From: an uncultured delta proteobacterium
Lineage (GTDB): Bacteria > Myxococcota_A > Polyangia > Polyangiales > B10-G4
NCBI GenBank assembly: GCA_963727445.1
Contig: CAVSGI010000020.1
Location: 416,001-480,000, forward strand
Direction of reading: 5' to 3'
Length of the DNA stretch: 64,000 bases
Under the pieces are notes generated by a model, which searched no databases, was not told the origin of the DNA, and saw nothing but the letters and a program-made list of their open reading frames with translations. A program made the position numbers and the translations under genes. Below are positions 36,144-50,509 of this stretch, in pieces. The first letter of the stretch is position 1, and every line of letters starts with the position of its first letter.

Positions 36144-37115
36144 ATGACGAAGCTCTGGCCCCTCGGGGTGTTCGCGGCGGCGACGCTCGCGATGGCGTGT
36201 GGCGACAGCCACGAGACGACGGACGGCGCGGTCGACAGCGGCACGGTCGATGGGGCGAGCGATGGCGGAACGACCGACAGCGGGACGACCGACGGCACCG
36301 TCGACAGCGGCGGCGGGGGCGGCCCGTGTCCGGCCGTGCTGCCCGAGCCGAGCGCGACCTGTTCGCCCGAGGGGCTCGTCTGCGAGTACGGGATGCGCTC
36401 ATGCCTGGCGACGGCCGAATGCAGCGGAGGGACGTGGACCGTGACCACCCCGCGCTGTCCTCCACCCCCCGCGGGCGGCTGCCCGGCCACGCGCGAGGAC
36501 GCCCAGGGCACCGCGTGCGCGGGCGACGAGGGCGCCACCTGCGAGTACGACTCCCTCCTCTGTCATTGCACCACCTGCCCAGACCCCTATCCGCTCTGCA
36601 TGACGGTCGATCCGCCCGTCTGGGCCTGCGAGGCGCCGAACCCCGACACCTCCTGTCCCGCGGCGCAGCCGCTCCTCGGCACGACGTGCGCGATGGAAGG
36701 GCAGACCTGCGATTACGGTTGCGAGGCGGGGCAGCAGCGAGTGTGCATGGGCGGGATCTGGACGGCGGCCTCCTCACCCGGCGGCTGCCCCATCTCGACC
36801 CGGCGGGTCAAGCGCGACATCGACTACCTCGAAGCGACCGAGGTCGACGCGATCGCCCGCGAGGTCCTCGGCACGCGCCTCGCGACCTACGAGTACAAGG
36901 ACCCCGCGCTCGCACCCGGCCGGCATCTCGGCTTCATCATCGAGGACCAGCCCCATTCGTACTCCGTCGATCCCGAGAGGAGCCAGGTCGACCTCTATGG
37001 CTACACCAGCATGCTGGTCGCCGCGACCCAGGCGCAGAACCGCCGCATCGAGGAGCTCGAGCGCACCGTCACAGCTCTTCAACGTCAGGTCCAAGCACGC
37101 CAGTGCGCCCCATGA
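36144..37115 (+). CDS. Cys-rich lipoprotein with C-terminal intramolecular chaperone autoprocessing (peptidase S74-like) domain
   Basis: Lipobox LAMAC; three CP..(G)..C..EG..C.Y modules; then ISTRRVKRDI..YEYK..HLGFIIED..VDLYG..LVAATQ plus coiled coil. Confidence 0.8.
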   Translation: MTKLWPLGVFAAATLAMACGDSHETTDGAVDSGTVDGASDGGTTDSGTTDGTVDSGGGGGPCPAVLPEPSATCSPEGLVCEYGMRSCLATAECSGGTWTVTTPRCPPPPAGGCPATREDAQGTACAGDEGATCEYDSLLCHCTTCPDPYPLCMTVDPPVWACEAPNPDTSCPAAQPLLGTTCAMEGQTCDYGCEAGQQRVCMGGIWTAASSPGGCPISTRRVKRDIDYLEATEVDAIAREVLGTRLATYEYKDPALAPGRHLGFIIEDQPHSYSVDPERSQVDLYGYTSMLVAATQAQNRRIEELERTVTALQRQVQARQCAP

Positions 37116-37229: not shown

Positions 37230-40200
37230 GTGAAAGCGTCGTCTCGAGGGGCTCGGCTGGGCACGCTGCTCTTGGCACTCCCCGCGTTGGTGAGCTGTGC
37301 AACGAAGGAGTGTCCGCCGGGCGGGGCCGGCATCTTCTGTCTCGACCCGGGTCCGGTCTCCGATAGCGGCGGCACCGACACCCCGTCCTGCGTCGCGGGC
37401 GAGACATGCGACACCGGCAACTCTTGCGAAGTGGGCGCGGTCGAGTGCGTCGGCGCCGTTGCGCAGTGCGTGAGCACTGGCCTGCTACCACCGGGCACCG
37501 AATGCGGGGTTGGGCTGTCTTGCGACGATGCCGGCGACTGCTCGATCTGCACTCCGGATGTCACCTGCGACACGGGCAACCCGTGTGAGGAGGGTCGGAT
37601 CGACTGCGGTTCCGGTGGGCCTGTCTGCATTCCACGCCAGGGCCTGCCATCGGGTACGCCTTGCGGCACCTCGGGCGTTTGCTCGGGCATGGGCGTCTGC
37701 AGCGAGTGTGTCGAGGGAACGACGTGCGACACGGGTGACCCATGCACGCGTGGCGTCTTCGACTGCTCCGGTGGCGATCCCGGCGTTTGCGTCGAGTCGA
37801 CAGACCTGCCGTCCGGCACCACGTGCGGTCCGGGGCTCGCCTGCGCCACAGGCGGCACCTGCAGCTCGTGCGTCGACGGGACGACGTGCGACACGGGCAA
37901 CCCGTGTGAGAACGGGGAGACGGACTGCGACGGGGATGCGCCCGTCTGCATCACGGCGGCGGACGTCCCACCGGGGACGCCTTGTGGGACGGCGGGGAGC
38001 TGCTCGGGCGCAGGCACCTGCAGCGAGTGCATACCCGGAACGACGTGCGACACGGGCAATGCGTGCACACGCGGAATGACCGATTGCAGCGCCGGCGGTG
38101 CGGGCGTGTGCATGGAGGTCGAGGACTTCCCCGCGGGGACGCGATGCGGCGCTGGGCTCGCTTGCGATGGGACCGGCGGGTGCACCCTCTGCGTCGATGG
38201 CGACGCGTGCACGACCGGCGCCTGCGAGACGGGCACGACCCGTTGCGTGAGCGGCTCGCCGGTCTGCGAGGTGACGGGCTCTGCGGGGGTCGGTGCGATC
38301 TGCCGGCCGTCCGCCGGCGCTTGTGATCTCGCGGAGGTTTGCGACGGGTCGATGACTTGCCCCGCGGACGGATTCGCGCCCGCCGGGACCCCCTGCCCCT
38401 CTGGCGAGTGCGATGGCGCCGGGACGTGCACCTCGACCTGTACGGACGGCGCGCCGTGCTCGACGGGCAGCCCCTGTGAAGTGGGCCGTGTCGACTGTAC
38501 GAGCGGCTCGGCCGTCTGCGTCGCCGCCGGACCGGCGACGGCGGGCACCGTGTGCCGCGCGGCGGTGGACGCATGTGACGTCGAGGAGACTTGCGACGAA
38601 GTGGCGACGGCGTGTCCGCTGGACGGGTTCTCGCCGGCCGGGGCGACGTGTCCGGGCGGGTATTGCGACGGGCTCGGCGGCTGCGGTGCGTGCAGCGCCG
38701 GAGCGCCGTGCTCGACGGGAAACCCCTGCGAGCTCGGCACGACGGATTGCGGCACCGGGGCTCCGGTGTGCGTGAGCGCGGGCGCCGCACCTGCGGGAAC
38801 CAGCTGCCGTCCCAGCGCCGGAGCCTGCGACGCCGAGGAGACCTGCGATGGCGCCGGCACCGTCTGCCCGCCCGACGCGCTGCTGGCTGCTGGTACGGCC
38901 TGCCGTCCGAGCGCAGGCGTCTGTGACGCCACCGAGGTCTGCGACGGGTCGAGCCCCGCGTGCCCGGCCGATGCCCCGGCCGGCGCGGGCACCATCTGCC
39001 GCGCCGTGGTGAGCCCATGTGACGTCGCGGAGGCATGCGACGGCGTGAGCACGACGTGTCCAGGTGATGCTGTCGCGCCGATGGGTACGAGCTGCCGGGC
39101 ATCGAGCGGACCGTGCGACGCCGCCGAGACCTGCGATGGCTCGGCGCCGACGTGTCCAGCAGACGCGTTCGATCCTGCGGGCACCGTGTGCCGCCCGTCC
39201 AGCGGGAGCTGCGACCCGGCCGAGAGCTGCGATGGCGGGTCGCCGACCTGTCCGGCCGACGCGCTCGACCCCGCCGGGTTCGTCTGCCGCCCGGCGGCGG
39301 GGGAATGCGACGCGGATGAGACGTGCGACGGTGCGAGCGTGCTCTGCCCGGCCGATGCGTTTCTCGCCGCGGGCACGATGTGCTCCCTCGGGAGCTGCGA
39401 CGGGGCGGGGATGTGCACGACGTGCACGCCGGGTGCGCCGTGCTCCACAGGCAACCCCTGCGAGCTCGGCGTCACGGATTGCACGGGCGGCGTGACTACC
39501 TGCGTAGCATCGGGTCCGGCGCCCGCGGGGACATCCTGCCGGGCTGCCGCGGACCTCTGCGACGCAGAAGAGCTCTGTGACGGGGTGAGCACCGTCTGCC
39601 CGCCGAACGGTGTCGCGGCCGCCGGCACCTCGTGTCGCGCGAGCGTGAGCGCGTGTGATGCGGAGGAGGTCTGCGACGGTGTCGGCTCCGCGTGTCCGGG
39701 CGACGCCGTGAGCCCGGCTGGCACCGTCTGCCGCGCCAGCGCCGGCGCCTGCGACAGCGCGGAGGTCTGCGACGGCGTCGGCGCCGCGTGCCCGGGCGAC
39801 GCCGTGAGCCCCGCCGGGAGCGTGTGTCGCGTGAGCGCCGGGGCGTGCGACGCCGCGGAGAGCTGTGACGGGACGAGTGGCCTCTGCCCCGCGGACGTCG
39901 TGAGCCCGGCCGGCACTTCGTGTCGCGCGAGCACGGGAGCGTGCAATCCCGCGGAGACCTGTGACGGCACGAGCGGCGCTTGTCCTGCGGACTCACTGGC
40001 CGCAGCGGGGACGACCTGTCGGGCGGCTTCGGGTGAATGCGACGTGGCCGAGACCTGCGATGGCGCGAGCACGTCGTGTCCGGTGGATGGCTATCAACCG
40101 GTGGGGACGGCGTGCTCGATCGGTGTCTGCGACGGTCTCAACATGTGCATCACCTGCACCGCGGGCGCGCCGTGCTCGACGGGCAACGCCTGCGAGCTGG

Positions 40201-43200
40201 GACAGATCGACTGCTCTGGCGGCATGCCCGTGTGCGTGGCGGCGGGCTTCGTGGCGGCGGGGACGGAATGCCGGGCGTCGACAGGCCCCTGCGACGCGGC
40301 GGAGGCCTGCACGGGATCGAGCGCGACATGTCCTGCGGATGCGCTGGCGCCGGCGGGGACGACGTGCCGCGCCGCAGCGGGCAGTTGCGACGTAGCCGAG
40401 GTGTGCGACGGAGCGAGCGCGATGTGCCCGGGGGATTCGATGGCGGCGGCGGGGACGACCTGTCGGGCGAGCGCGGGCGTGTGCGATTCGGCGGAGGTCT
40501 GCGACGGGCTGAGCTCCACGTGTCCGGCGGACGTCGTCGCGTCGGCGGGGACACTGTGCCGAGCGAGCGCGGGAACCTGTGATACGGCGGAGGTCTGCAA
40601 CGGGTCGAGCGGCACCTGTCCGGCGGATGGCTTCGTGGCGGCGGGCACGTCCTGCAGGGCCAGCACCGGTATCTGCGACGTCGCCGAGACCTGCACTGGA
40701 AGTAGCGCCACGTGCCCTCCGGATGCCCTCACCGCCGCCGGGACCATCTGTCGCGCCCAGAGTGGAGAGTGCGATGCGGCGGAGACGTGTGACGGAGCGA
40801 GCGCCGCGTGCCCTGCCGACGGCTACCAGGCCGTCGGCACGGTGTGCTCGGGTGGCGTGTGCGACGGAATGAACATGTGCATCGCCTGCAGCTCGGGAGC
40901 GCCCTGCTCGACGGGCAACGCCTGCGAGATCGGCCAGATCGACTGCTCCGGCGGAGCGCCGGTTTGCGTCTCGGCCGGCCTGCGCCCGGCAGGCACCGTC
41001 TGCCGTGCGTCGACGGGCGCCTGCGATGCCGCGGAGACCTGCACGGGATCGAGCCCGGTCTGTCCCGCGGACTCCCTCTCTCCCGCGGGCACCGTCTGTC
41101 GTGCGAGCGCCGGGGCATGTGACGTAGCGGAGACGTGCAGCGGCTCGAGCGCGACCTGTCCCGCGGATTCGCTCGCCGCGGGGGGAACGGTATGCCGCGC
41201 GAGCGCCGGGGCCTGCGACGTGGCGGAGACGTGCAGCGGTTCGAGCGCGACCTGCCCCGCCGATGTCGTCTCGTCCGCTGGTACGGTGTGCCGCGCGAGC
41301 GCAGGCGTCTGCGACGTCGCCGAGACGTGCAATGGGGTGAGCGGCGCGTGTCCGGCGAACGGCTTGGTCTCGTCGGGCACGGTGTGCCGACCATTGGCGG
41401 CCGGTGGCTGCGACGTGGCGGAGACGTGCACGGGCTCGAGCGCCTCGTGCCCCGCCGACGGTTTTGCTTCGTCGGGCACGGTGTGCCGGGCGAGCGCGGG
41501 GGCGTGCGACGTGGCGGAGACGTGCGAGCGGCTCGAGCGCGACGTGTCCGGCGAACGGCTTCGTCGCGGTCGGGACGGAGTGCGGGCGAGCGCGGGGGCG
41601 TGCGACGTGGCGGAGACGTGCAACGGGTTGAGCGCGGCGTGCCCGGCCGACGCTTTTGCTTCGTCGAGGACGGAGTGCCGAGCGAGCGCGGGGGCTGTGC
41701 GACGTGGCGGAGACGTGCACCGGGTCGAGCGCGGCATGTCCCGCGAACGGCTTCGTCTCCGGTGGGACGGAGTGCCGAGCGAGCGGCGGGGTCTGCGACA
41801 TCGCGGAGACGTGCACGGGCTCGAGCGCGGCGTGTCCGGCGAACAGCTTCGTCTCGTCGGGCACGGAGTGCCGCGCTCTCGCGGCCGGCGGGTGCGACGT
41901 GGCGGAGACGTGCAACGGTTCGAGCGCGGCGTGCCCAGCGGATGCATTTGCCTCGTCTGGGACAGTGTGCCGAGCGAGCGCGGGGGCGTGCGACGTTGCG
42001 GAGACGTGCAGCGGCTCGAGCGCGACCTGTCCCGCAAACGCCTACGCATCGTCGGGCACGGTCTGCCGCGCGGCTGCGGGCAGTTGCGACGTAGCGGAGA
42101 CCTGTACGGGCTCGGCGGCCACCTGCCCCGCCAACGCCCTCGTGTCCGGCGGGACTCAGTGTCGAGCGAGCGCCGGCGTCTGCGACGTAGCGGAGTCGTG
42201 CACGGGGTCGAGCGCGCTCTGCCCCGCCAACGGCTTCGTGTCCGGCGGGACTCAGTGTCGAGCGAGCGCTGGCGTCTGCGACGTGGCGGAGTCGTGCACG
42301 GGTTCGAGCGCGGCCTGTCCCTCGAACGGATTCGTGTCTGCGGGTACCGAGTGTCGAGCGAGCGCGGGCGTCTGCGACACGGCGGAGCAGTGCACGGGCT
42401 CGAGCGCATCGTGTCCGGCGAACGCCCTGACGCCGGCGGGCACGGAGTGTCGGGCGAGCACGGGCCCTTGCGACGTCGCAGAGACTTGCACGGGCTCGAG
42501 CACGTCGTGTCCGGCGAACGGGTACGTGGCAGCGGGGACCGAGTGCCGGGCGAGCGCGGGTGTCTGTGACGTGGCGGAGACGTGCAGTGGTTCGAGCGCG
42601 ACCTGTCCCGCGAACGGGTATGTGTCAGCGGGGACCGAGTGCCGGGCGAGCGCCGGCGTCTGCGACGTGGCGGAGCAATGCACGGGCTCGAGCGCATCCT
42701 GCCCCTTCAACCGATACCTGTCCTCGGCGACGGTCTGTCGCCCCACTGGCGCGGGTACCTGCGACGTCGCCGAAACGTGCACGGGCTCGAGCGCGTCCTG
42801 CCCACCCGATGGTTGCCTGACCTCGCAGTCCTGCTCGGAGTGCGGATACTCCGGCACGCAGACCTGTGACGGCACGTGCAACTGGGCCAATTGCGGCAAC
42901 TTCAGCTTCAGCCGCTACTACGACAACGTCGAGGTTCCCTTCACCCACTCCTGCGGCTACAACTGCGGCGACGGGCTCGGCGACTGGTGCATCCTCGGGG
43001 CGCCCGGCGGCGGCTGCGATCTCATCAGCGGCGGCCCCAGCCCGAGCATCACCGCGCCCCCCGGTCGCTACCGGGCCGACTTCTACTGGGGCGACGTCGG
43101 AACCCACGACTTCTACGCCTACGTCAACGGGGTCCTCGCGGGCTCGGCGACCTACACGAACAGCTCGTCGTCCAGCTTCCCCCACGTCTACGTGAACTTC

Positions 43201-43305
43201 ACGATCGCGGCCGGGACCTGCGGCACGATCACCCTGCGCATCCGCTCTAGAGCGGGTGCGCGCATCCGTCTCTACTCCATCCGCATCGACCGCACCGGCA
43301 ATTAG
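37230..43305 (+). CDS. Giant Cys-rich repeat lipoprotein (~2,020 aa) with ~39 disintegrin-like repeats; three apparent 1-nt indels near 41526, 41583, 41696
   Basis: Lipobox LVSC. The repeat GTxCRxxxGxCDxAExCxGxSxxCPxD continues across track ORFs 37230..42569 and 41656..43305. C-terminal non-repeat beta-rich domain. Confidence 0.85.
38285..42810 (+). repeat. Coding tandem repeat, ~96-bp unit (32 aa), interrupted by a second Cys-rich unit
   Basis: Recurrent tgcgacgtggcggagacgtgc..ggctcgagcgcg..tgtccggcg with ~96-nt period. Confidence 0.9.
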
Positions 43306-43324: not shown

Positions 43325-44581
43325 TCAACCGAAGGACTGACGCCGAGGCTTGCGTGAGATGCGGACCAGCGCCTCGGGCGCGGCGCGCTCGGGCTCGGGC
43401 GCGTCGTCGGCTTCCACCACGATCTCGAAGAGCCCGCAGTCGAAGGGCGTGCCGTCAGCCGGGTCGGCAGGCACCAGGCGCTCGCGCAGTCCGCGGCGCG
43501 CGTGCTCGAGGGCGCGGAAGTGACAGTAGGGGTTGTTCCCCGGTCGCCCGAAGAACGCGTGGGAGGTGAAGGAGCAGCCGCCGAGGCAGGTGTCACCGTA
43601 GACGCACTCGGCGCAGAAGCCGTGCAGGTCGTCGCGTGTTCGCGCGCGGGCGAAGCCGAGCTCGGGGGTCTCGTCCCAGATGCTGGCGATCGAACGGTCG
43701 CGCGCGTGGCCGCCCACGTAGGTCGTGGTCTGAAGCGAAGGGCAGCCCTTGATCGCGCCGTCCGACTCGATCCCCATCACGTACTTGCCCGCCTGGCATC
43801 CGGCCCAGTGGTCACCGTGCTCGGGGCGAAGTGAGCGCAGGAGCCCCTCTTCGGGGCCGAAGTAACCGAGGTTGTTGCCGGGCATCAGGAGCAGCCCTTC
43901 CTCGAGGCCGCGCTTCTTCACCGCCGCGATGCGCGGCATCAAGTCGAGCAGGTCGTAGGGTTGAAGGAGCATCTCCGGCCGATCCGCCGCGCGGCCCAGG
44001 GGCGCCGTGAGCTGTACCTGCCACGCGCGCACCCCCGCGTCGCGCAGCACCGCGTAGAGCCCTTCGAGGTCGCCCATGTTCAGGCGATTGAAGTTCGTGT
44101 TCGCACCGGCGGCCATCCCGGCCTCGCGCGCGTTCGCGAGCGCCGCGACCCCATCCCGAAACGAGCCGCGCCGGGCGCGCATCCGGTCGTGGTTGTCTTC
44201 GAGGCCGTCGAGGCTCACCGACACGCGCGTGACCCCCGCTTCCTTCATCGCGCGCGCCATCTCCTTCGTGATGCCGCGACCGCCGGTGGTGACGAGCACC
44301 CGCACGTCCGCTTCGTGAAAGGCGCGCGCCACCTCGAGGAAGCCTTCGTGCAGGTACGCCTCGCCGCCGATCAGCACCACCTCCCGCGTGCCCATCGCCA
44401 CCAGCTGGCGCACGACGTCCAGCGCCTCCGCCGCGCCGAGCTCGCTCTCACGCGCGACCCCGGCCCGAGACCCGCAGTGGGTGCAGGCGTGGTCGCAGGC
44501 GAGGGTCAGCTCCCAGACGACGTAGCGCGGGTGGTGATCGGTACCGACGACGTCGAGGCGACGGCGTGAAGGCTCGTTCAC
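43325..44581 (-). CDS. Radical SAM/SPASM peptide maturase, PlpX/splicease-like
   Basis: VWELTLACDHACTHCGSRAG (CxxxCxxC), LIGGEAYL, TTGG, AWQVQLTAPLGRAAD..LLQPY, GNNLGYFGP; SPASM CQAG..GIESDGAIKGCPSL..FCAEC..CLGGC..GNNPYCHFRAL..G.PFD.G.FE. GTG start 1 nt after the upstream stop. Confidence 0.9.
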   Translation of the reverse strand: MNEPSRRRLDVVGTDHHPRYVVWELTLACDHACTHCGSRAGVARESELGAAEALDVVRQLVAMGTREVVLIGGEAYLHEGFLEVARAFHEADVRVLVTTGGRGITKEMARAMKEAGVTRVSVSLDGLEDNHDRMRARRGSFRDGVAALANAREAGMAAGANTNFNRLNMGDLEGLYAVLRDAGVRAWQVQLTAPLGRAADRPEMLLQPYDLLDLMPRIAAVKKRGLEEGLLLMPGNNLGYFGPEEGLLRSLRPEHGDHWAGCQAGKYVMGIESDGAIKGCPSLQTTTYVGGHARDRSIASIWDETPELGFARARTRDDLHGFCAECVYGDTCLGGCSFTSHAFFGRPGNNPYCHFRALEHARRGLRERLVPADPADGTPFDCGLFEIVVEADDAPEPERAAPEALVRISRKPRRQSFG

Positions 44582-44582
44582 C

Positions 44583-44969
44583 TCAGGCGTCGGGGGCCGC
44601 GTCCGCGGCGGCGTCCCCGCTCGCTGCGTCGCCCGACGCGTCTCCGCTCGCATCGGAGGCCGCATCGGAGGCCGCATCGGCCGCGCCCGTATCCGCGGTG
44701 CCGGTGTCCGTGGTGCCCGTGTCCGCGGTGCCCGTGTCGGTTCCCATGTCCGCTCCCGAGTCGACGGGGCCAGTGTCCGGCGGCACGTAGTCGTCGGCGG
44801 CGCCGTAACAAGCGGAGAGGGTCATCGCCAGGATCCCTCCGCCCAGGGTGGCGAGGGGTCCGACCAGGCGCTTTGTAACCACCGAGGCTGACGCGCCGCA
44901 ATGCGGACAGGTCGACAGCTTGGAGGGAAGGAAGGAATCACACTGCGAACAAGAGCTGAGCTTGGCCAT
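44583..44969 (-). CDS. Small putative lipoprotein / RiPP-like substrate: Zn ribbon + lipobox-CYG + Asp-rich tail (128 aa)
   Basis: MAKLSSCSQC-x10-CPHC...ILAMTLSACYGAADDY...(DTG/DAAS)n. Confidence 0.8.
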   Translation of the reverse strand: MAKLSSCSQCDSFLPSKLSTCPHCGASASVVTKRLVGPLATLGGGILAMTLSACYGAADDYVPPDTGPVDSGADMGTDTGTADTGTTDTGTADTGAADAASDAASDASGDASGDAASGDAAADAAPDA

Positions 44970-45012: not shown

Positions 45013-46029
45013 TCATCGCGCGGCAGCGCCACCGATTCGGAGCCCGAGGTCTCGCAGGTGCTCCCCCTCGCCGGTGAAGGGATCGATGCGGATCAGGGCC
45101 CCGTGGCAGGTGAACCCGTAGAGGAGGTCCCCAAAAGCGGCTACACCCCAGATGCACGGAAAGCCGGTATAGCCGAGGAGCCGCGCGCCGCCCCCCTCGA
45201 GGTCGACCTCGGCCAGCTGGTTGTCGCGGGTCTCGGAAGAGGCCTCGTCGGTGACGGTGACGAGCATCCGCCCATCGACGAAGGCGATGTCCCCAGAGGC
45301 GACCCAGCCCGCCGGGAGTCGCGCCACCTGCTCCCAGGCCCCGCTCATGGGGTCCATCGCGACGATGCGATCGTCCTGACCCGCCCCGAAGAGGCGTCCG
45401 CCGGGCCCTTCTTCGAGCGCCACCAGCTCGCCCGGGGAGGGGAACAGGGGGCGAACGCCCCCCAGGATGTCGTCCACCTCGAAGACCGAGTCGAAGTTCA
45501 CCCCATAGAGACGGCGGTCCGAGGCCAGCGCGATGTCGGTGAAGCGGGCGGCGAGGCGGGTGAGGCGGGTGAAATCGCCGGCGGGGAGGTCCACCTGGTA
45601 GAGGGCGTCGTTGTCGTGGATGAGAGCCTGGGCCACACATCCCCGAACGGGGTCACAGCGGTGGCTGATCGGGCAGGCCAGGTCGTCGGGCTCGAAGGCG
45701 CAACCCGTGGGCTCGACGCATGAATTGGTGGTGCAGTCGACGCCGTCGTCGCAGGCGAGGGGGCTCGTGACGCAGCCCGACATCGAGTCGCAGCGGCCGA
45801 TCTCGCAGGTGAGCCCGGTTTCACAGGCGTCGGCGAGGATCTGCTGGTGGCATCGGCCGGCCTCGCAGCGGTCCTCGGTGCAGCCCACGCCGTCTTCGCA
45901 GTCCACGTCGGCGGTGCACTCCGGCACCTCCCCGTCGGGCAGGCCGAGGGGGGCGGGGTCGACGCCGAGCCCCGACTTGCTGCCACATGCCACCCCCAAA
46001 AGGGCCAGCGCCAGGACCGTGCGTCTCAT
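45013..46029 (-). CDS. Cys-rich lipoprotein with C-terminal beta-propeller
   Basis: Lipobox LGVAC; CEDGVGCTEDRC and CDDGVDCTTNSC repeats; propeller blades FTDIAL..LYG, SGDIAF, IWGVAAFGDLLYGFT. Confidence 0.75.
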   Translation of the reverse strand: MRRTVLALALLGVACGSKSGLGVDPAPLGLPDGEVPECTADVDCEDGVGCTEDRCEAGRCHQQILADACETGLTCEIGRCDSMSGCVTSPLACDDGVDCTTNSCVEPTGCAFEPDDLACPISHRCDPVRGCVAQALIHDNDALYQVDLPAGDFTRLTRLAARFTDIALASDRRLYGVNFDSVFEVDDILGGVRPLFPSPGELVALEEGPGGRLFGAGQDDRIVAMDPMSGAWEQVARLPAGWVASGDIAFVDGRMLVTVTDEASSETRDNQLAEVDLEGGGARLLGYTGFPCIWGVAAFGDLLYGFTCHGALIRIDPFTGEGEHLRDLGLRIGGAAAR

Positions 46030-46131
46030 CGGGCACCGAGCCTACCTCCCGAGGGGCAGCCGCGCCGCTCGCATCCGAAGCAAGAAGCAGTGGAATTTGA
46101 CGTGCCTGCTTCAGCTGCCCAATTTGTAGGC

Positions 46132-47499
46132 GTGCCCCGACGTTCCACGGCCCGCTCGCTGCTCACCTTCGCGGGGGTGGCCGGGGCGGCCGTCTTCCTC
46201 TGGACCTGTGCGGGCGCCCCTCCTCGTGGGACGGATCGCCCCGCGCCCGGCCCCAGCGCCGCCTCGGACGATCCGTCCCCCTCGCCGATCGCCGCCGCCG
46301 AGGAGCCGGCCGAGCTGGCCGCCGGCCCCGCCTTCGCGCCCATCGACGACGGAGTGCCAGGCCTGAGGATCCCGATTCACGATCCCTCGGGGGTCGCCCT
46401 CGCGCACTTCTACGAAGCGCTCCGCCGCGCCGAAGCAGGCGAAGGACAAGCGAAGCTCGCGTTCTATGGCGCGAGTCACGTCGCCTCCGATCTCTTCACC
46501 GGCTACTTGCGCGATGCGCTTCAGCGACGCTTCGGCGACGCCGGTCCCGGCTTCGTGATCCCGGCGCATCCCTGGCGCTTCTATCGCAATCAGCGCTTCG
46601 ACATCGAGTCGAGCCGTCGCCTCTGGGACGGACACAAGGTGCGAGCGACGGATCCGGAGGTCCACTACTACGGCCTCGCCGGAGCCTTCGTCGAGACCTC
46701 CAGGCGCGGCGCTTTCGGTGCCATCACCACGCGCGAGCACGACGGTCTCGGCGGCAAGGTCTCCCGCTACGACCTCTATTACATGCAGCAGCCCGGCGGC
46801 GGCTCCTTCGAGGTGAAGATCGACGGCGAAGTCGTGGGCCGCGTCGACACCGACAGTGAGGACAAGGGCGCCGGCTACGCGACCTACGAAGTGGAAGACG
46901 GGGCGCATCGCTTCGAGGTGCGCACCCTCTCCGATCGTCCGGTGCGCATCTTCGGTGTCGCCGCCGACCGCGAGACGCCCGGGGTGATCCTCGACACCCT
47001 CGGCATCAACGGCGCCCGCGCTCGGTACCACCTGCAGTGGGAAGACGGGATGTACCGCGAGCATCTCGCGCGTCGGCATCCGGACCTGGTGGTGCTCGCC
47101 TACGGCACGAACGAGTCCGGCGACGACGAGGTTCCGATCACGACCTACGAGGAACGTTTGCGCCGCGTGCTGACGCGGGTCAAGGAGGTCGTGCCCGAAG
47201 CGTCCTGCCTGCTCATCGGTCCGTCGGACCGTCCTTTTCGCGAGGACGGCGACGCACTCGACCGGCCGCGCACCAGTGAGCTCGTCGATGCACAACGTCG
47301 CGTGAGCGAAGAGATGGGGTGCGGCTTCTTCGACCTCGTCGCGTTCATGGGCGGACCGCTCTCGATGGTCGATTGGGTGGAGCACGATCCGCGTTACGGC
47401 GCGCCCGATCACATCCACTACACGCGCAGAGGCTACGAAAGACTGGGCGAAGCGCTGCGCTATGCCCTCCTCTACGACTTCGAGGCGCCCAGCGAATAG
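46132..47499 (+). CDS. SGNH/GDSL-family O-acetyltransferase/esterase (PatB-like)
   Basis: FYGASHVASD, LGINGAR, AYGTNE, PDHIHYT..GY. Start approximate. Confidence 0.85.
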   Translation: MPRRSTARSLLTFAGVAGAAVFLWTCAGAPPRGTDRPAPGPSAASDDPSPSPIAAAEEPAELAAGPAFAPIDDGVPGLRIPIHDPSGVALAHFYEALRRAEAGEGQAKLAFYGASHVASDLFTGYLRDALQRRFGDAGPGFVIPAHPWRFYRNQRFDIESSRRLWDGHKVRATDPEVHYYGLAGAFVETSRRGAFGAITTREHDGLGGKVSRYDLYYMQQPGGGSFEVKIDGEVVGRVDTDSEDKGAGYATYEVEDGAHRFEVRTLSDRPVRIFGVAADRETPGVILDTLGINGARARYHLQWEDGMYREHLARRHPDLVVLAYGTNESGDDEVPITTYEERLRRVLTRVKEVVPEASCLLIGPSDRPFREDGDALDRPRTSELVDAQRRVSEEMGCGFFDLVAFMGGPLSMVDWVEHDPRYGAPDHIHYTRRGYERLGEALRYALLYDFEAPSE

Positions 47500-47570
47500 C
47501 GCCTGATTTCGGCCCTTTGGGGGCCGGGTGGCGTCGGGCTTTCGAGACGAGTAGAACCGGCCGCCGGCCG

Positions 47571-48992
47571 ATGCTGTTCAACAGCCCCGACTACGTTCTT
47601 CTGCTCATCCTCGCGGTCGCGGGCTACTGGCTTCTCGCGCATCACCGCGCGTCGCGCCTGCTCTTCATCTTCCTCGCGTCGTGTGCGTTCTACATGGCGT
47701 GGCATCCGTACTACATCGTCTTGATCCTCGGATCGACGCTGCTCGACTTCACCGCGGGTCATCAGATCCATGCAGCGACGTCTGCGCGCAAGAAGCGCGC
47801 GTGGCTCCTGGTGAGCGTCGTCGGCAACCTCGGTCTGCTCGGCACCTTCAAGTACTTCAACTTCTTCGGACGCGCGACGGCCGACGTCGTGTCGCTCTTC
47901 GGCTACGAGCTCCATCCGCCGTTCTTGGACGTGCTGCTCCCGGTGGGGATCAGCTTCTACACGTTCCAGACGATGAGCTACACCATCGACATCTACCGCG
48001 GGCGGCTCGCGCCCACGAAGAGCCTCCTCGAGTTCGCGTTCTTCGTGACCTACTTCCCGCAGCTCGTCGCCGGGCCGATCGTGCGCGCGTCCGAGTTCCT
48101 CCCTCAGCTGAAGCACACGCCCGAGCTCAGACGCGACGAGGTGGGGCGCGGCCTCTTCCTGATCGCGACCGGCATGATCAAGAAGGTCGCCATCGCAGAC
48201 TTCCTCTCGGTGAACCTCGTCGACCGCGTCTTCGAGAATCCCGAGCTCTACACCGCACCCGAAGTCGTCTTCGCCCTGTACGGCTTTACCGTCCAGATCT
48301 ATTGCGATTTCTCCGGATACACCGACGTCGCGAGGGGCTCGGCGATGCTCATGGGCCTGCGCCTCCCGCGCAACTTCGATCGCCCTTATCAGTCCGCGAG
48401 CCCCGCCGAGTTCTGGCGCACCTGGCACATGACGTTGTCGACGTGGTTGCGCGACTACCTCTACTTCCCACTCGGCGGCTCACGCGTCTCTCCACCGCGC
48501 GCGTACTTCAACTTGTTCGTCACGATGTTCTTGATCGGCATCTGGCATGGCGCGTCGTGGACGTTCGTTCTCTACGCGCTCTTGCAAGCCGGCGCGATGA
48601 TCGTGCACCGCTTCTTCCATCGTCGATCGGGTCGCGCGCGGGACGCCGTCGACCCCTGGCCGATGCGCGCTGTCAAGGTGTTCGCCTGTCTTCAGTTCGT
48701 CGTCTTCAGCCGCATACTTTTCAGGGCAACCAACATCGATAACGCTTGGGACGTGACAAGTCGCCTCTTCAGCGGTACGACATCCATGGCGCAGGTTTCG
48801 ACGACGGTGTTCATCGTCCTCGTCCTGTCGCTCGGGGCTCACTACACACCGAGGCGTTGGTTCGAAGAGATGGAACGACGCTTCATCAAGTTGCCGGCGC
48901 TCGCTCAGGGGGCTCTCCTCGGGGTGGTCGCGGGTTTCCTGGGCCTCGTCGCCACCACCGAAGTCGTCCCGTACATCTACTTTCAGTTCTGA
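47571..48992 (+). CDS. MBOAT family O-acyltransferase (AlgI/PatA-like)
   Basis: LPVGISFYTFQTMSY, FPQLVAGPIVR, QIYCDFSGYTD, FWRTWHMTLSTWLRDYLY, GIWHGA, C-terminal YIYFQF. Confidence 0.95.
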   Translation: MLFNSPDYVLLLILAVAGYWLLAHHRASRLLFIFLASCAFYMAWHPYYIVLILGSTLLDFTAGHQIHAATSARKKRAWLLVSVVGNLGLLGTFKYFNFFGRATADVVSLFGYELHPPFLDVLLPVGISFYTFQTMSYTIDIYRGRLAPTKSLLEFAFFVTYFPQLVAGPIVRASEFLPQLKHTPELRRDEVGRGLFLIATGMIKKVAIADFLSVNLVDRVFENPELYTAPEVVFALYGFTVQIYCDFSGYTDVARGSAMLMGLRLPRNFDRPYQSASPAEFWRTWHMTLSTWLRDYLYFPLGGSRVSPPRAYFNLFVTMFLIGIWHGASWTFVLYALLQAGAMIVHRFFHRRSGRARDAVDPWPMRAVKVFACLQFVVFSRILFRATNIDNAWDVTSRLFSGTTSMAQVSTTVFIVLVLSLGAHYTPRRWFEEMERRFIKLPALAQGALLGVVAGFLGLVATTEVVPYIYFQF

Positions 48993-48997
48993 GCGCA

Positions 48998-50509
48998 ATG
49001 AGCCCCGAGACCCGCGCGTCACTCATCAACCTCGCCACGGCCACGACCATCTTCCTCGCGTTCGGGGTGGCCTCGTATTTCATCCCCGAGGGCACGGTCC
49101 TCGCGGGCGTGAAGCTCGACCGCCTCAAGCCCTATACAGCCGACGACCCGCCCCCGCTCGCGGAGCTGTGGGACTATGGAAACAAGGAATTACCAGCCTT
49201 TGCGGGCGCTGGCGGCTCCTACGTCTCCCCCGAGCAGCGCTCGGCGCGGATGACCGAGAGCGTCGGCAGCGCCGTCGCCCACAACCTCGGAGAGGTGGAG
49301 GCGCCGCCCCTCGCCGAGGACGCCGAGCAGTCGCCCGCGGTGCGCATCGACCCAGCCGAGTATGCGGACCTCGCGGTCGAGATCGAGAACCCCGAAGCGC
49401 TCTCCACCTTCTTCGAAGCCCTCGAGGCGACGGCGCGTCGCGAGCCCGACGCCATCACCCGCGTCGGCCACTACGGTGACTCTTCCATCGCGACGGATCT
49501 GATCACCAGCACCGCGCGGCGGAACTTCCAGCGTCGTTTCGGGGATGCAGGCCATGGCTTCCATCTGATCTCGCGCGGGACGATGCCTTACCGTCACCGC
49601 AACGTCTTCCATCGCGCCTCGGGCGAGTGGGGGCTGCGCATGATCACCATGGGCACCGACCGTGAAGGTCAGTACGGCTACGGGGGTGTCGCGTACACGC
49701 CCCGGAGCGGCGCGCGGGCGCTCTTCGGCACCGCCGACGAGGGGAACATCGGTCTTCGGGTTTCGCACTTCGACATCTACTACCGTCAGGAGCCTCGCGG
49801 CGGCCGGCTCCGCTACCGCGTCGACGATGGGGAGTACGAGACCCTCGACACCGACGGGCAGAGCGGTGATCAGGTGCAGCGCATCGACGTGCCCGACGGG
49901 CCGCACCGCCTCGAGCTGCGCGCCGCGGGCGGCGGCCGGGTGAAGGTGTACGGGGTCGCCATGGAGCGGGAGGGGCCGGGGGTGGTCTACGACTCCCTCG
50001 GCCTGGTGGGCGCCCGCGCCCGCCGGCTCCTCAACTACGACGAGGAGCACATCGGGGCCCAGATGGCCGAGCGCGACCTCGACCTGGTGGTCCTGGGCTT
50101 CGGCGGCAACGAGGCGGACGACCCCCTCGGCCCCATCGAGAACCACTACGAGCCCGAATTCGCTGCGGTTATTCGCCGGATGCGCGGCGGACGGCGCGAC
50201 CTGGCCTGCCTGGTCTTCGGGCCGCTCGACCAGGCCTCCCGGGACGAGCACGGGCGGATCACCACCATGGAGACCATCCCCGTGATCGTCGCTGCCCAGC
50301 GCGCGGCGGCCCGGCGGGAAGGCTGTGCGTTCTTCGATACCTACCAGGCCATGGGCGGCGAGGGCGCGATGGCCGCATGGGTGCGCGCCAATCCCCGATT
50401 GGCGATGAGCGACTACCGCCACGCGACCCCCGACGGCTACCAGGTGATCGGCAACCTCTACTACAAGGCCCTGCTCAAGGCCTTCGCCGACCACCTTCGC
50501 AATCAGTAG
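48998..50509 (+). CDS. SGNH/GDSL-family O-acetyltransferase (PatB-like), N-terminal TM
   Basis: HYGDSSIATD, FGDAGHGF, GFGGNE, SDYRHATPDGY. Confidence 0.85.
   Translation: MSPETRASLINLATATTIFLAFGVASYFIPEGTVLAGVKLDRLKPYTADDPPPLAELWDYGNKELPAFAGAGGSYVSPEQRSARMTESVGSAVAHNLGEVEAPPLAEDAEQSPAVRIDPAEYADLAVEIENPEALSTFFEALEATARREPDAITRVGHYGDSSIATDLITSTARRNFQRRFGDAGHGFHLISRGTMPYRHRNVFHRASGEWGLRMITMGTDREGQYGYGGVAYTPRSGARALFGTADEGNIGLRVSHFDIYYRQEPRGGRLRYRVDDGEYETLDTDGQSGDQVQRIDVPDGPHRLELRAAGGGRVKVYGVAMEREGPGVVYDSLGLVGARARRLLNYDEEHIGAQMAERDLDLVVLGFGGNEADDPLGPIENHYEPEFAAVIRRMRGGRRDLACLVFGPLDQASRDEHGRITTMETIPVIVAAQRAAARREGCAFFDTYQAMGGEGAMAAWVRANPRLAMSDYRHATPDGYQVIGNLYYKALLKAFADHLRNQ

Follow-up and report, generated by a model that had tools for sequence, protein, structure and literature searches.

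Spliceotides are defined by the excision of tyramine (-C8H9NO), which leaves an α-keto-β-amide; for the system described here this reaction is predicted. In the type I systems of Pleurocapsa, PlpX/PlpY/PlpA and PcpXYA, a SPASM radical SAM enzyme acts at an XYG site that follows small or hydrophobic residues, with the help of an enzyme-activating accessory module (PMC11414181, PMC11002830 and PMC9811515, in the sections covered). The accessory protein PlpY and the leader helix of RhaA are both activators, and both work when fused to the enzyme C-terminus (PMC11414181). Spliceotide systems outside the cyanobacteria all lack a Y/RRE protein (PMC11414181). The binary type II systems RhaX/RhaA and RcsX/RasX of Rheinheimera consist of two genes, have no RRE and carry the activator in the substrate N-terminus (PMC11414181; PMC11626197, in part); some leaderless cores are modified by native RhaX to ~50% (PMC11414181). 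A survey by Scott et al. (2022) counted 3418 candidates in 189 genera, as cited in the portion of PMC10849128 covered here. Ketoamide spliceotides are in vitro inhibitors of Ser/Cys proteases (PMC11626197, in part), and by 2022, according to a review, no native product had been isolated from its host (PMC9811515, in the sections covered). In a different group, the DAG-RiPPs (DybA/DybH, NedA/NedBC), the N-terminus of the RiPP is removed by the lipoprotein pathway: modification takes place in the cytoplasm, fast enough to compete with export unaided, and Lgt/LspA/Lnt then take the role that a dedicated protease and exporter would have (PMC13056109, in the sections covered).

The window, by which we mean the whole stretch of 64,000 nucleotides analysed here, contains a two-gene locus that resembles both kinds of system. 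Its features are as follows.

43325..44581, minus strand: PlpX-like radical SAM/SPASM enzyme of 418 aa, with neither an RRE nor a ribbon of its own (TIGR04103 and TIGR03913 matches, identity to a Nostoc enzyme)
44583..44969, minus strand: substrate gene of 128 aa, with a putative zinc-ribbon head, a lipoprotein-type signal, a CYG site and an acidic low-complexity tail (ORF translation, homologues)
44898..44951, minus strand: four-Cys ribbon C7-x2-C10-x10-C21-P-H-C24, the predicted docking and activating module, with F13 central in the model (complex model, profiles, codons)
44880..44882, minus strand: in-frame GTG at V30, a possible but unsupported alternative start (translation)
44868..44873, minus strand: K33-R34, a basic pair ahead of the hydrophobic helix (translation; 1-6 K/R in the linker of 73/73 homologues)
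44820..44867, minus strand: h-region L35-T50, uncharged and hydrophobic (translation; a low-confidence model, with a mean pLDDT of 63, shows a helix at 39-54)
44808..44819, minus strand: lipobox L51-S-A-C54, the predicted lipidation and SPase II site (sequence pattern)
44802..44810, minus strand: C54-Y55-G56, the predicted XYG splice site, with the lipobox Cys as X (YG at +2/+3 in 90/160 substrates)
44586..44801, minus strand: tail rich in Ala, Asp, Gly and Thr, not conserved (translation, homologue comparison)

Translation of the ORF from 44969 to 44583 (minus strand) confirmed the order of four-Cys ribbon, KR pair, hydrophobic stretch and lipobox that an earlier note on this DNA had described. 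The enzyme GTG at 44581 lies one base past the substrate stop codon. Upstream starts at 45032 for the substrate and 44677 for the enzyme were considered and rejected, and no promoter- or terminator-like site was found between 43000 and 46300 of the window. The four Cys of the substrate head suggest a zinc ribbon by their pattern; the head scores under every Pfam cut-off (15.6-17.4 bits for DZR, UPF0547 and Zn_ribbon_3 against gathering thresholds of 27-29, with E 0.005 for DZR). Six substrates scanned against NCBIfam matched no family at a meaningful score, the single lead being a weak match to the tail of TIGR03913 (E 0.019), and ESM Atlas matches came from Myxococcota clusters only (0.88-0.90). 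In 32 of 90 CYG homologues the tail contains a DCxD..HP-type motif (PF11617-like).

The enzyme matches Pfam Radical_SAM (PF04055) and SPASM (PF13186), both above cut-off, and is 49.9% identical to Nostoc nif11-class maturase 3; its named relatives are mostly from Myxococcota. It falls under the cut-off of all 25 NCBIfam families shown. The best of these are TIGR04103 (460.5 bits, cut-off 725, E 4e-138) and TIGR03913 (409.9 bits, cut-off 591.75), where the match stops at profile position 393 of 477. The CxxxCxxC motif is located at residues 29-36, so the short N-terminus remarked on in the earlier note is real; it is not special, as the type I enzyme of Nostoc is equally short. The C-terminal tail contains no ribbon. 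No RRE partner lies nearby, again as noted earlier: the sole PqqD match (PF05402) in the genome, which is 86% complete, is on another contig (C6), and the presumed Nostoc Y gene, a small unannotated gene after the Nostoc splicease, gave a best E of 0.24 when used as a query against the same genome. Absence of an RRE from a splicease locus is an already published feature and not new (PMC11414181). No solved splicease structure was found in the PDB.

In its sequence features the locus fits the wider splicease family, with a PlpX-homologous radical SAM/SPASM enzyme adjacent to a substrate that has a conserved XYG motif. It shares with type I the SPASM radical SAM enzyme, for which TIGR04103 is the best family, the site after small or hydrophobic residues and, as predicted, an accessory module that activates the enzyme. 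In contrast to type I, no Nif11/NHLP leader family matched the substrate and a Y gene is lacking; the predicted module is a ribbon of four Cys carried by the substrate itself, the substrate has a lipoprotein-type signal, and the enzyme stays under the TIGR04103 cut-off. Type II resembles the window system in its two genes, the absence of an RRE and the placement of the activator in the substrate N-terminus, but the activator there is an α-helix, whereas here it is a predicted zinc ribbon, followed by a membrane helix and a lipobox. The GDL-motif/DUF1843 systems (TIGR03913), which we take to be the type III spliceotides, share a homologous enzyme (44-48% identity), the CxxC-x10-CPHC ribbon and a conserved binding patch. 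Their ribbon, unlike that of the window, is on the enzyme C-terminus, and their short DUF1843 substrates have neither ribbon nor signal. The TIGR04133 system likewise pairs a radical SAM/SPASM gene with a putative lipoprotein, but the window enzyme reaches 140.2 bits against a cut-off of 425, and TIGR04134, presumably a family of Bacteroidota, is unmatched by the six substrates. DAG-RiPPs would share the route from cytoplasmic modification to Lgt/LspA/Lnt; they use MNIO enzymes at sites away from the lipidated Cys, whereas the predicted residue here is the lipobox Cys itself (PMC13056109, in part). The system would work like a binary spliceotide and like a DAG-RiPP; by its scores and its substrate it falls outside type I, TIGR03913 and TIGR04133.

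A genome-wide search for paralogues, suggested by the earlier note, found seven more ribbon lipoproteins and a second enzyme (contig C18, 50% identical). In these seven the ribbon is of RH type, and a lipobox Cys is followed farther downstream by YG sites. YG occurs within 110 aa of the Cys in 8/8 ribbon lipoproteins, which as paralogues are not independent, compared with 30 of 304 ordinary lipoprotein candidates in the genome; the latter were chosen by our own rules. Six of the ribbon lipoproteins are scattered (L082-L087, on C1, C2, C6, C10 twice and C21), each having 1-3 YG sites but no neighbouring gene that closely matches the enzyme, and are candidate trans substrates of the C18 enzyme. 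The substrate by the second enzyme (C18, L081:7188-7689) is frameshifted in a 15-nt repeat, through either an assembly slip or a real break, and the other frame has two more LYG sites.

The enzyme is matched at E <= 1e-60 in 88 of 251 genomes sampled from the phylum. Strong substrate heads (E <= 3e-7) are present in 56/63 genomes with a close enzyme and in 0/163 without an enzyme match; the first figure is circular, the profile having been built from those genomes, and the threshold was set after the data were seen. A strong head is absent in seven of the 63, and weak head matches at 1e-4 occur in 50 of the 163 enzyme-negative genomes. At 163 loci with an enzyme, 160 substrates were identified by script in 133 loci; 26/164 enzymes had no substrate by this script, several of them being script misses. 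Loci L081-L088 and L091, which are duplicates or have no enzyme, were excluded from these counts and from the enzyme tree, and one identical enzyme was left off the tree. The substrate gene is upstream, divergent, downstream or convergent relative to the enzyme, depending on the genome. The link between substrate and enzyme is therefore not a matter of inherited gene order alone.

We propose that in the cytoplasm the ribbon of the substrate docks on, and likely activates, the PlpX-like radical SAM enzyme of the adjacent gene. Tyramine would then likely be excised by this enzyme at C54-Y55-G56, after which the housekeeping Lgt/LspA/Lnt would lipidate C54 and remove the ribbon together with the signal. 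The predicted product is a membrane-anchored protein whose first residue is an acylated α-keto-β-cysteine, that is, a lipid-anchored ketoamide. Since enzymes of this family are oxygen-sensitive and that of the window lacks a signal peptide, its place of action would be the cytoplasm. Splicing at CYG is probable by analogy to PlpX chemistry, and lipidation and cleavage after splicing seem somewhat favoured. The whole chain, from docking through splicing to lipidation and cleavage, is offered as tentative, with a little less than an even chance of holding throughout. By analogy to the protease-inhibiting ketoamides, the product would likely serve as a surface electrophile against Ser/Cys hydrolases, in surface defence.

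Basic residues, an uncharged h-region and a lipobox Cys (LSAC) give the substrate the rule-based hallmarks of a lipoprotein. Its signal is 53 residues long, within a family range of 32-71 (CYG median 53), compared with 16-28 in ordinary candidates. A Cys closes the helix in 156/160 substrates, whether YG is adjacent or distant, and in 90 of them YG follows that Cys directly; in the clade of the window, the splice residue X is thus predicted to be the lipobox Cys. The residues T-L-[MSA]-A before the site (T in 81/90 CYG substrates, L in 88/90, M in 68/90) are conserved far beyond the needs of a lipobox, suggesting that the enzyme likely reads this motif and so acts before cleavage. Because the motif lies in the part that LspA would remove, splicing should precede cleavage. 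The genome holds LspA (2 matches) and Lgt (4 loci). The idea that SPase II serves as the leader peptidase is not new and has a precedent in DAG-RiPPs (PMC13056109, in the sections covered). The earlier note had also assigned to the ribbon a role in delaying export. We do not retain this, as DAG-RiPPs need no delay device and the ribbon on GDL-type enzymes has no export to delay.

The weakest step of the chain is whether the lipoprotein enzymes accept a spliced Cys; in the literature, we found no report of Lgt/LspA accepting keto-β-Cys, nor of Cys accepted as X. It could be that the ribbon docks and CYG is spliced, but that Lgt/LspA then fail to process the changed lipobox, so that an uncleaved anchor remains or the keto-β-Cys eliminates or self-cleaves; splicing would then be an anchoring switch. 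The splice would alter the backbone directly after the +1 Cys, and a thiol or thioether β to a ketone can eliminate. The lipobox is atypical as well, with Met at -2 in 68/90 CYG substrates versus 8/304 ordinary candidates, and with CYG in 0/304. On the other hand, the -1/+1 amide and the thiol are not altered in the PlpX reaction scheme (PMC11414181), and substrates in which YG has shifted still have a Cys behind the helix, whichever way the shift runs on the tree. We consider such a switch unlikely and prefer lipidation and cleavage of the spliced Cys.

In the enzyme tree (FastTree, midpoint-rooted), for which 80 loci were picked by likeness to the window enzyme, all 82 enzymes beside a CYG substrate form one clade with a support of 1.00. 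That these enzymes stand together, under curated cut-offs, and that a free thiol adjoins the target Tyr would also suit an enzyme that docks via the ribbon and then performs a chemistry other than tyramine excision, such as a Cys thioether cross-link; thioether-forming SPASM enzymes are among the nearest solved folds. Several observations make this improbable. The window enzyme is ~50% identical to the type I family enzyme and to the second enzyme of its own genome, and Y-G is followed by x-P in most substrates of both the CYG and the distant-YG class. In five members of the CYG clade, YG is shifted 6-8 residues off while the Cys is retained, and X is Ile, Ala, Leu or Val. All of the 27 splicease-substrate pairs tested were confirmed (27/27; PMC10849128, in part). 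Tyramine excision remains the preferred reaction.

The interaction between ribbon and enzyme was examined by structure prediction, as the earlier note had proposed. A complex of the enzyme (397 aa), Zn and substrate residues 1-33 obtained a score of 0.75, and the best of three controls 0.01. The mark applied is attained by 116/157 solved pairs and 2/215 mismatched ones, and is only rough here, with our own alignments and a ligand included. The runs share at least 94% of contacts, and the partner pLDDT is at least 75; in the model of the free head, the ribbon has a pLDDT of 66-68. F13 packs against F233, E237 and H250, and P15 and P22 against residues 319-320 and 347-351, in the numbering of enzyme alignment A1 (add 8 for the position in the 418-aa protein). 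The contacts belong to the following feature.

43505..43861, minus strand: predicted ribbon-binding patch, A1 residues 233-238, 248-252, 319-323 and 347-351 (complex model, column conservation)

Alignments A1 (enzymes) and A2 (substrates) comprise 74 CYG pairs picked for an exact x10 ribbon, and their invariant columns are partly a product of this selection. Four of the 17 patch columns rank 1, 2, 5 and 16 of 378 in tracking the ribbon type, a ranking confounded with a single clade split. On this model, the ribbon very probably docks on the adjacent enzyme.

The same module occurs on the GDL-type enzymes. A search with a ribbon-free query revealed a C-terminal CxxC-x10-CP[HF]C in 116 of the best 120 of these enzymes, with a spacer of always 10 residues (alignment A3 holds 72 of the 120); those of Azospirillum and Aureibacter end in CxxC-x10-CPHC. 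In an AlphaFold2 model of a GDL-type enzyme the ribbon has a pLDDT of 93-95 (pTM 0.87). A profile built from GDL-type ribbons alone ranked the eight ribbon lipoproteins of the genome 1st to 8th of 1683 scored segments, 169 of which have a similar Cys pattern. In the reverse test, GDL-type ribbons scored as single sequences reached 12.6-12.7 bits on the substrate profile, not above generic ribbons; the two could be told apart by the reciprocal profile alone. The reading of the ribbon as a generic one of myxobacterial membrane proteins was rejected, since the family scores 27-36 bits versus at most 17.7 for others; one borderline match that was inspected is a generic double ribbon. The patch is kept in the GDL-type enzymes (E237 in 120/120, H250 in 118/120, Y319 and Y320 in 120/120), and the substrates at the two DUF1843 loci examined have no ribbon. 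The complex result may partly echo fused GDL-type sequences known to the model, and the docking and fusion evidence are not fully independent.

The opposite arrangement is found in nine distant enzymes that are C-terminally fused to a helix, a Cys and 2-12 YG repeats. No ribbon was found at their loci in a search that recovered its positive controls, and these enzymes are degenerate at positions 250, 319 and 320. The fused enzymes (L139, L140, L141, L143, L146, L147, L148, L149 and L152) form a monophyletic clade with a support of 1.00. Their lipoprotein-type signal and lipobox-like Cys are internal, after a domain of ~370 aa, so that enzyme and substrate are one chain. A candidate fusion at L008 was rejected as a second partial copy of the enzyme, and a search with longer forms of the substrate head revealed no enzyme fusion in 64 matches. 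A Tropicibacter (alphaproteobacterial) plasmid enzyme (L181:2228-3850) has an RH-type ribbon and a helix remnant fused before the radical SAM domain; its operon also encodes a second radical SAM enzyme, a phosphotransferase and two peptidases.

The three arrangements of the ribbon, on the enzyme, on the substrate or absent, amount to a natural experiment. Since GDL-type enzymes carry the same module, the ribbon is best read as an accessory, activating subunit brought by the substrate. The folded docking leader envisaged in the earlier note therefore stands in part: the ribbon belongs to the protein and, by model and homology, likely docks on the enzyme, but it is not a leader confined to substrates. 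It is likely an activator of spliceases that can be moved between proteins, in the manner of PlpY or the leader helix of RhaA. A fuller version is possible, though we would sooner expect it to fail than to hold: a portable on-switch that is enzyme-fused in GDL-type systems, substrate-borne in Myxococcota and lost on fusion of enzyme and substrate, with the ribbon class addressing scattered lipoproteins to one of two orthogonal enzymes. Given that some cores are modified by RhaX without a leader, the effect of the ribbon may be no more than a higher yield.

The activator could instead be the hydrophobic helix, as in RhaA, with the ribbon mainly delaying export or sensing metal or redox state. 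A leader helix does activate RhaX (PMC11414181), the helix is retained in the fusions and in substrates with a two-Cys head, a folded head must remain in the cytoplasm, and the complex job covered residues 1-33, which end before the helix. Yet the ribbon alone passes the complex test against the enzyme, it is part of GDL-type enzymes with no export involved, and DAG-RiPPs are modified before export with no such device (PMC13056109, in the sections covered). We regard the helix as a rather implausible activator and continue to assign docking and likely activation to the ribbon.

These roles require that the ribbon is translated. A protein with a ribbon head and [AC]YG is present in 67/80 loci with enzyme relatives, giving 73 proteins including that of the window. 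The earlier note had pointed out that a true start downstream of the Cys motifs would undo its reading; in 73/73 of these proteins a start codon lies 1-8 codons ahead of the first Cys, and in 65 it is ATG. Variation among ribbon codons is highest at position 3 (0.49 versus 0.29 and 0.20), and 30 close pairs differ in their ribbon codons by 111 synonymous and 61 non-synonymous changes. Codon patterns and start positions alike thus mark the ribbon as a translated part of the substrate protein. An ordinary short-signal lipoprotein, translated from the GTG at V30 so that the ribbon is never made, would have a canonical 24-residue signal in the window copy, but it is hardly credible given the starts ahead of the ribbon, the 29/73 homologues with no start codon between ribbon and helix, the synonymous excess, the homology to enzyme-borne ribbons and a GTG that has no Shine-Dalgarno-like sequence and is not conserved in position.

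This analysis adds four points: that the ribbons of substrates and enzymes are reciprocally homologous, the complex with the ribbon alone, the fusions that lack a ribbon, and the CYG clade. The core chemistry itself is probably already known. We found no paper that describes a splicease substrate with a zinc ribbon or of lipoprotein type, and Scott et al. 2022 (Chem 8:2659), which was not covered, may list the family. The supplement text of PMC11414181 contains no 'zinc', 'lipoprotein', 'myxo' or 'type IV'; its leaders of types II, III and V are aligned as pictures and were not covered. No mention of zinc was found in the sections of the DAG-RiPP paper covered (PMC13056109), and the parts of PMC10533398, PMC10880069 and PMC10885120 covered held nothing further on the topic. 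A helical leader is so far the one case in which the switching-on of a Y-less splicease is understood (PMC11414181), and the ribbon family would provide a second, folded activator. It comes with a residue-level prediction (F13 against E237/H250 of the enzyme) and with natural controls in which the ribbon is fused, substrate-borne or absent. Some hosts are in culture, among them Sorangium cellulosum So ce56 (L025), and would allow a direct search for a product bound to the membrane. If the lipobox Cys is indeed spliced yet lipidated, DAG-RiPPs would be extended to radical SAM chemistry, and lipoproteins would gain a new kind of N-terminus. For labelling, an enzyme fused to the ribbon suggests itself as a single-component tool.

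Some relatives depart from the common plan. A two-Cys degenerate head replaces the ribbon in L157:4109 (-) and in L178:3995 and 3790 (-), while helix, Cys and YG are kept; the ribbon is not universal among splicease substrates. L157 also holds an ORF that we take to resemble DUF692. Short YG-repeat peptides with neither ribbon nor signal lie beside enzymes of a short clade that has no ribbon (L144:1504-1930, L153:1912). The helix of one ribbon substrate (L169:1244) ends in A-H-A, which is signal-peptidase-I-like, and has no Cys. At L014 and L017-L020, two CYG substrates with different tails flank one enzyme, one upstream and the other convergent downstream.

The neighbours of the window locus are unrelated: a gene for a disintegrin-repeat protein is convergent with it, and a lipoprotein-like gene lies upstream. 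The former (37230-43305, plus strand) is a very long Cys-rich lipoprotein-like gene with disintegrin-type repeats, matching PF00200 in 12 stretches (with an E of 7.7e-66 over the final 549 aa); near 41600-41700 its reading frame splits into overlapping ones, probably because the assembly slipped in the repeats. Another Cys-rich lipoprotein-like gene (36144-37115, plus strand) has a weak C-terminal match to Peptidase_S74, an endosialidase chaperone (E 0.009, under cut-off). On the other side, 45847-50509 (plus strand) includes a GDSL/SGNH protein (PF13472). The same stretch presumably encodes a membrane protein of MBOAT acyltransferase type and a second SGNH-like protein, and to our eye it resembles a polysaccharide or peptidoglycan O-acetylation cluster.
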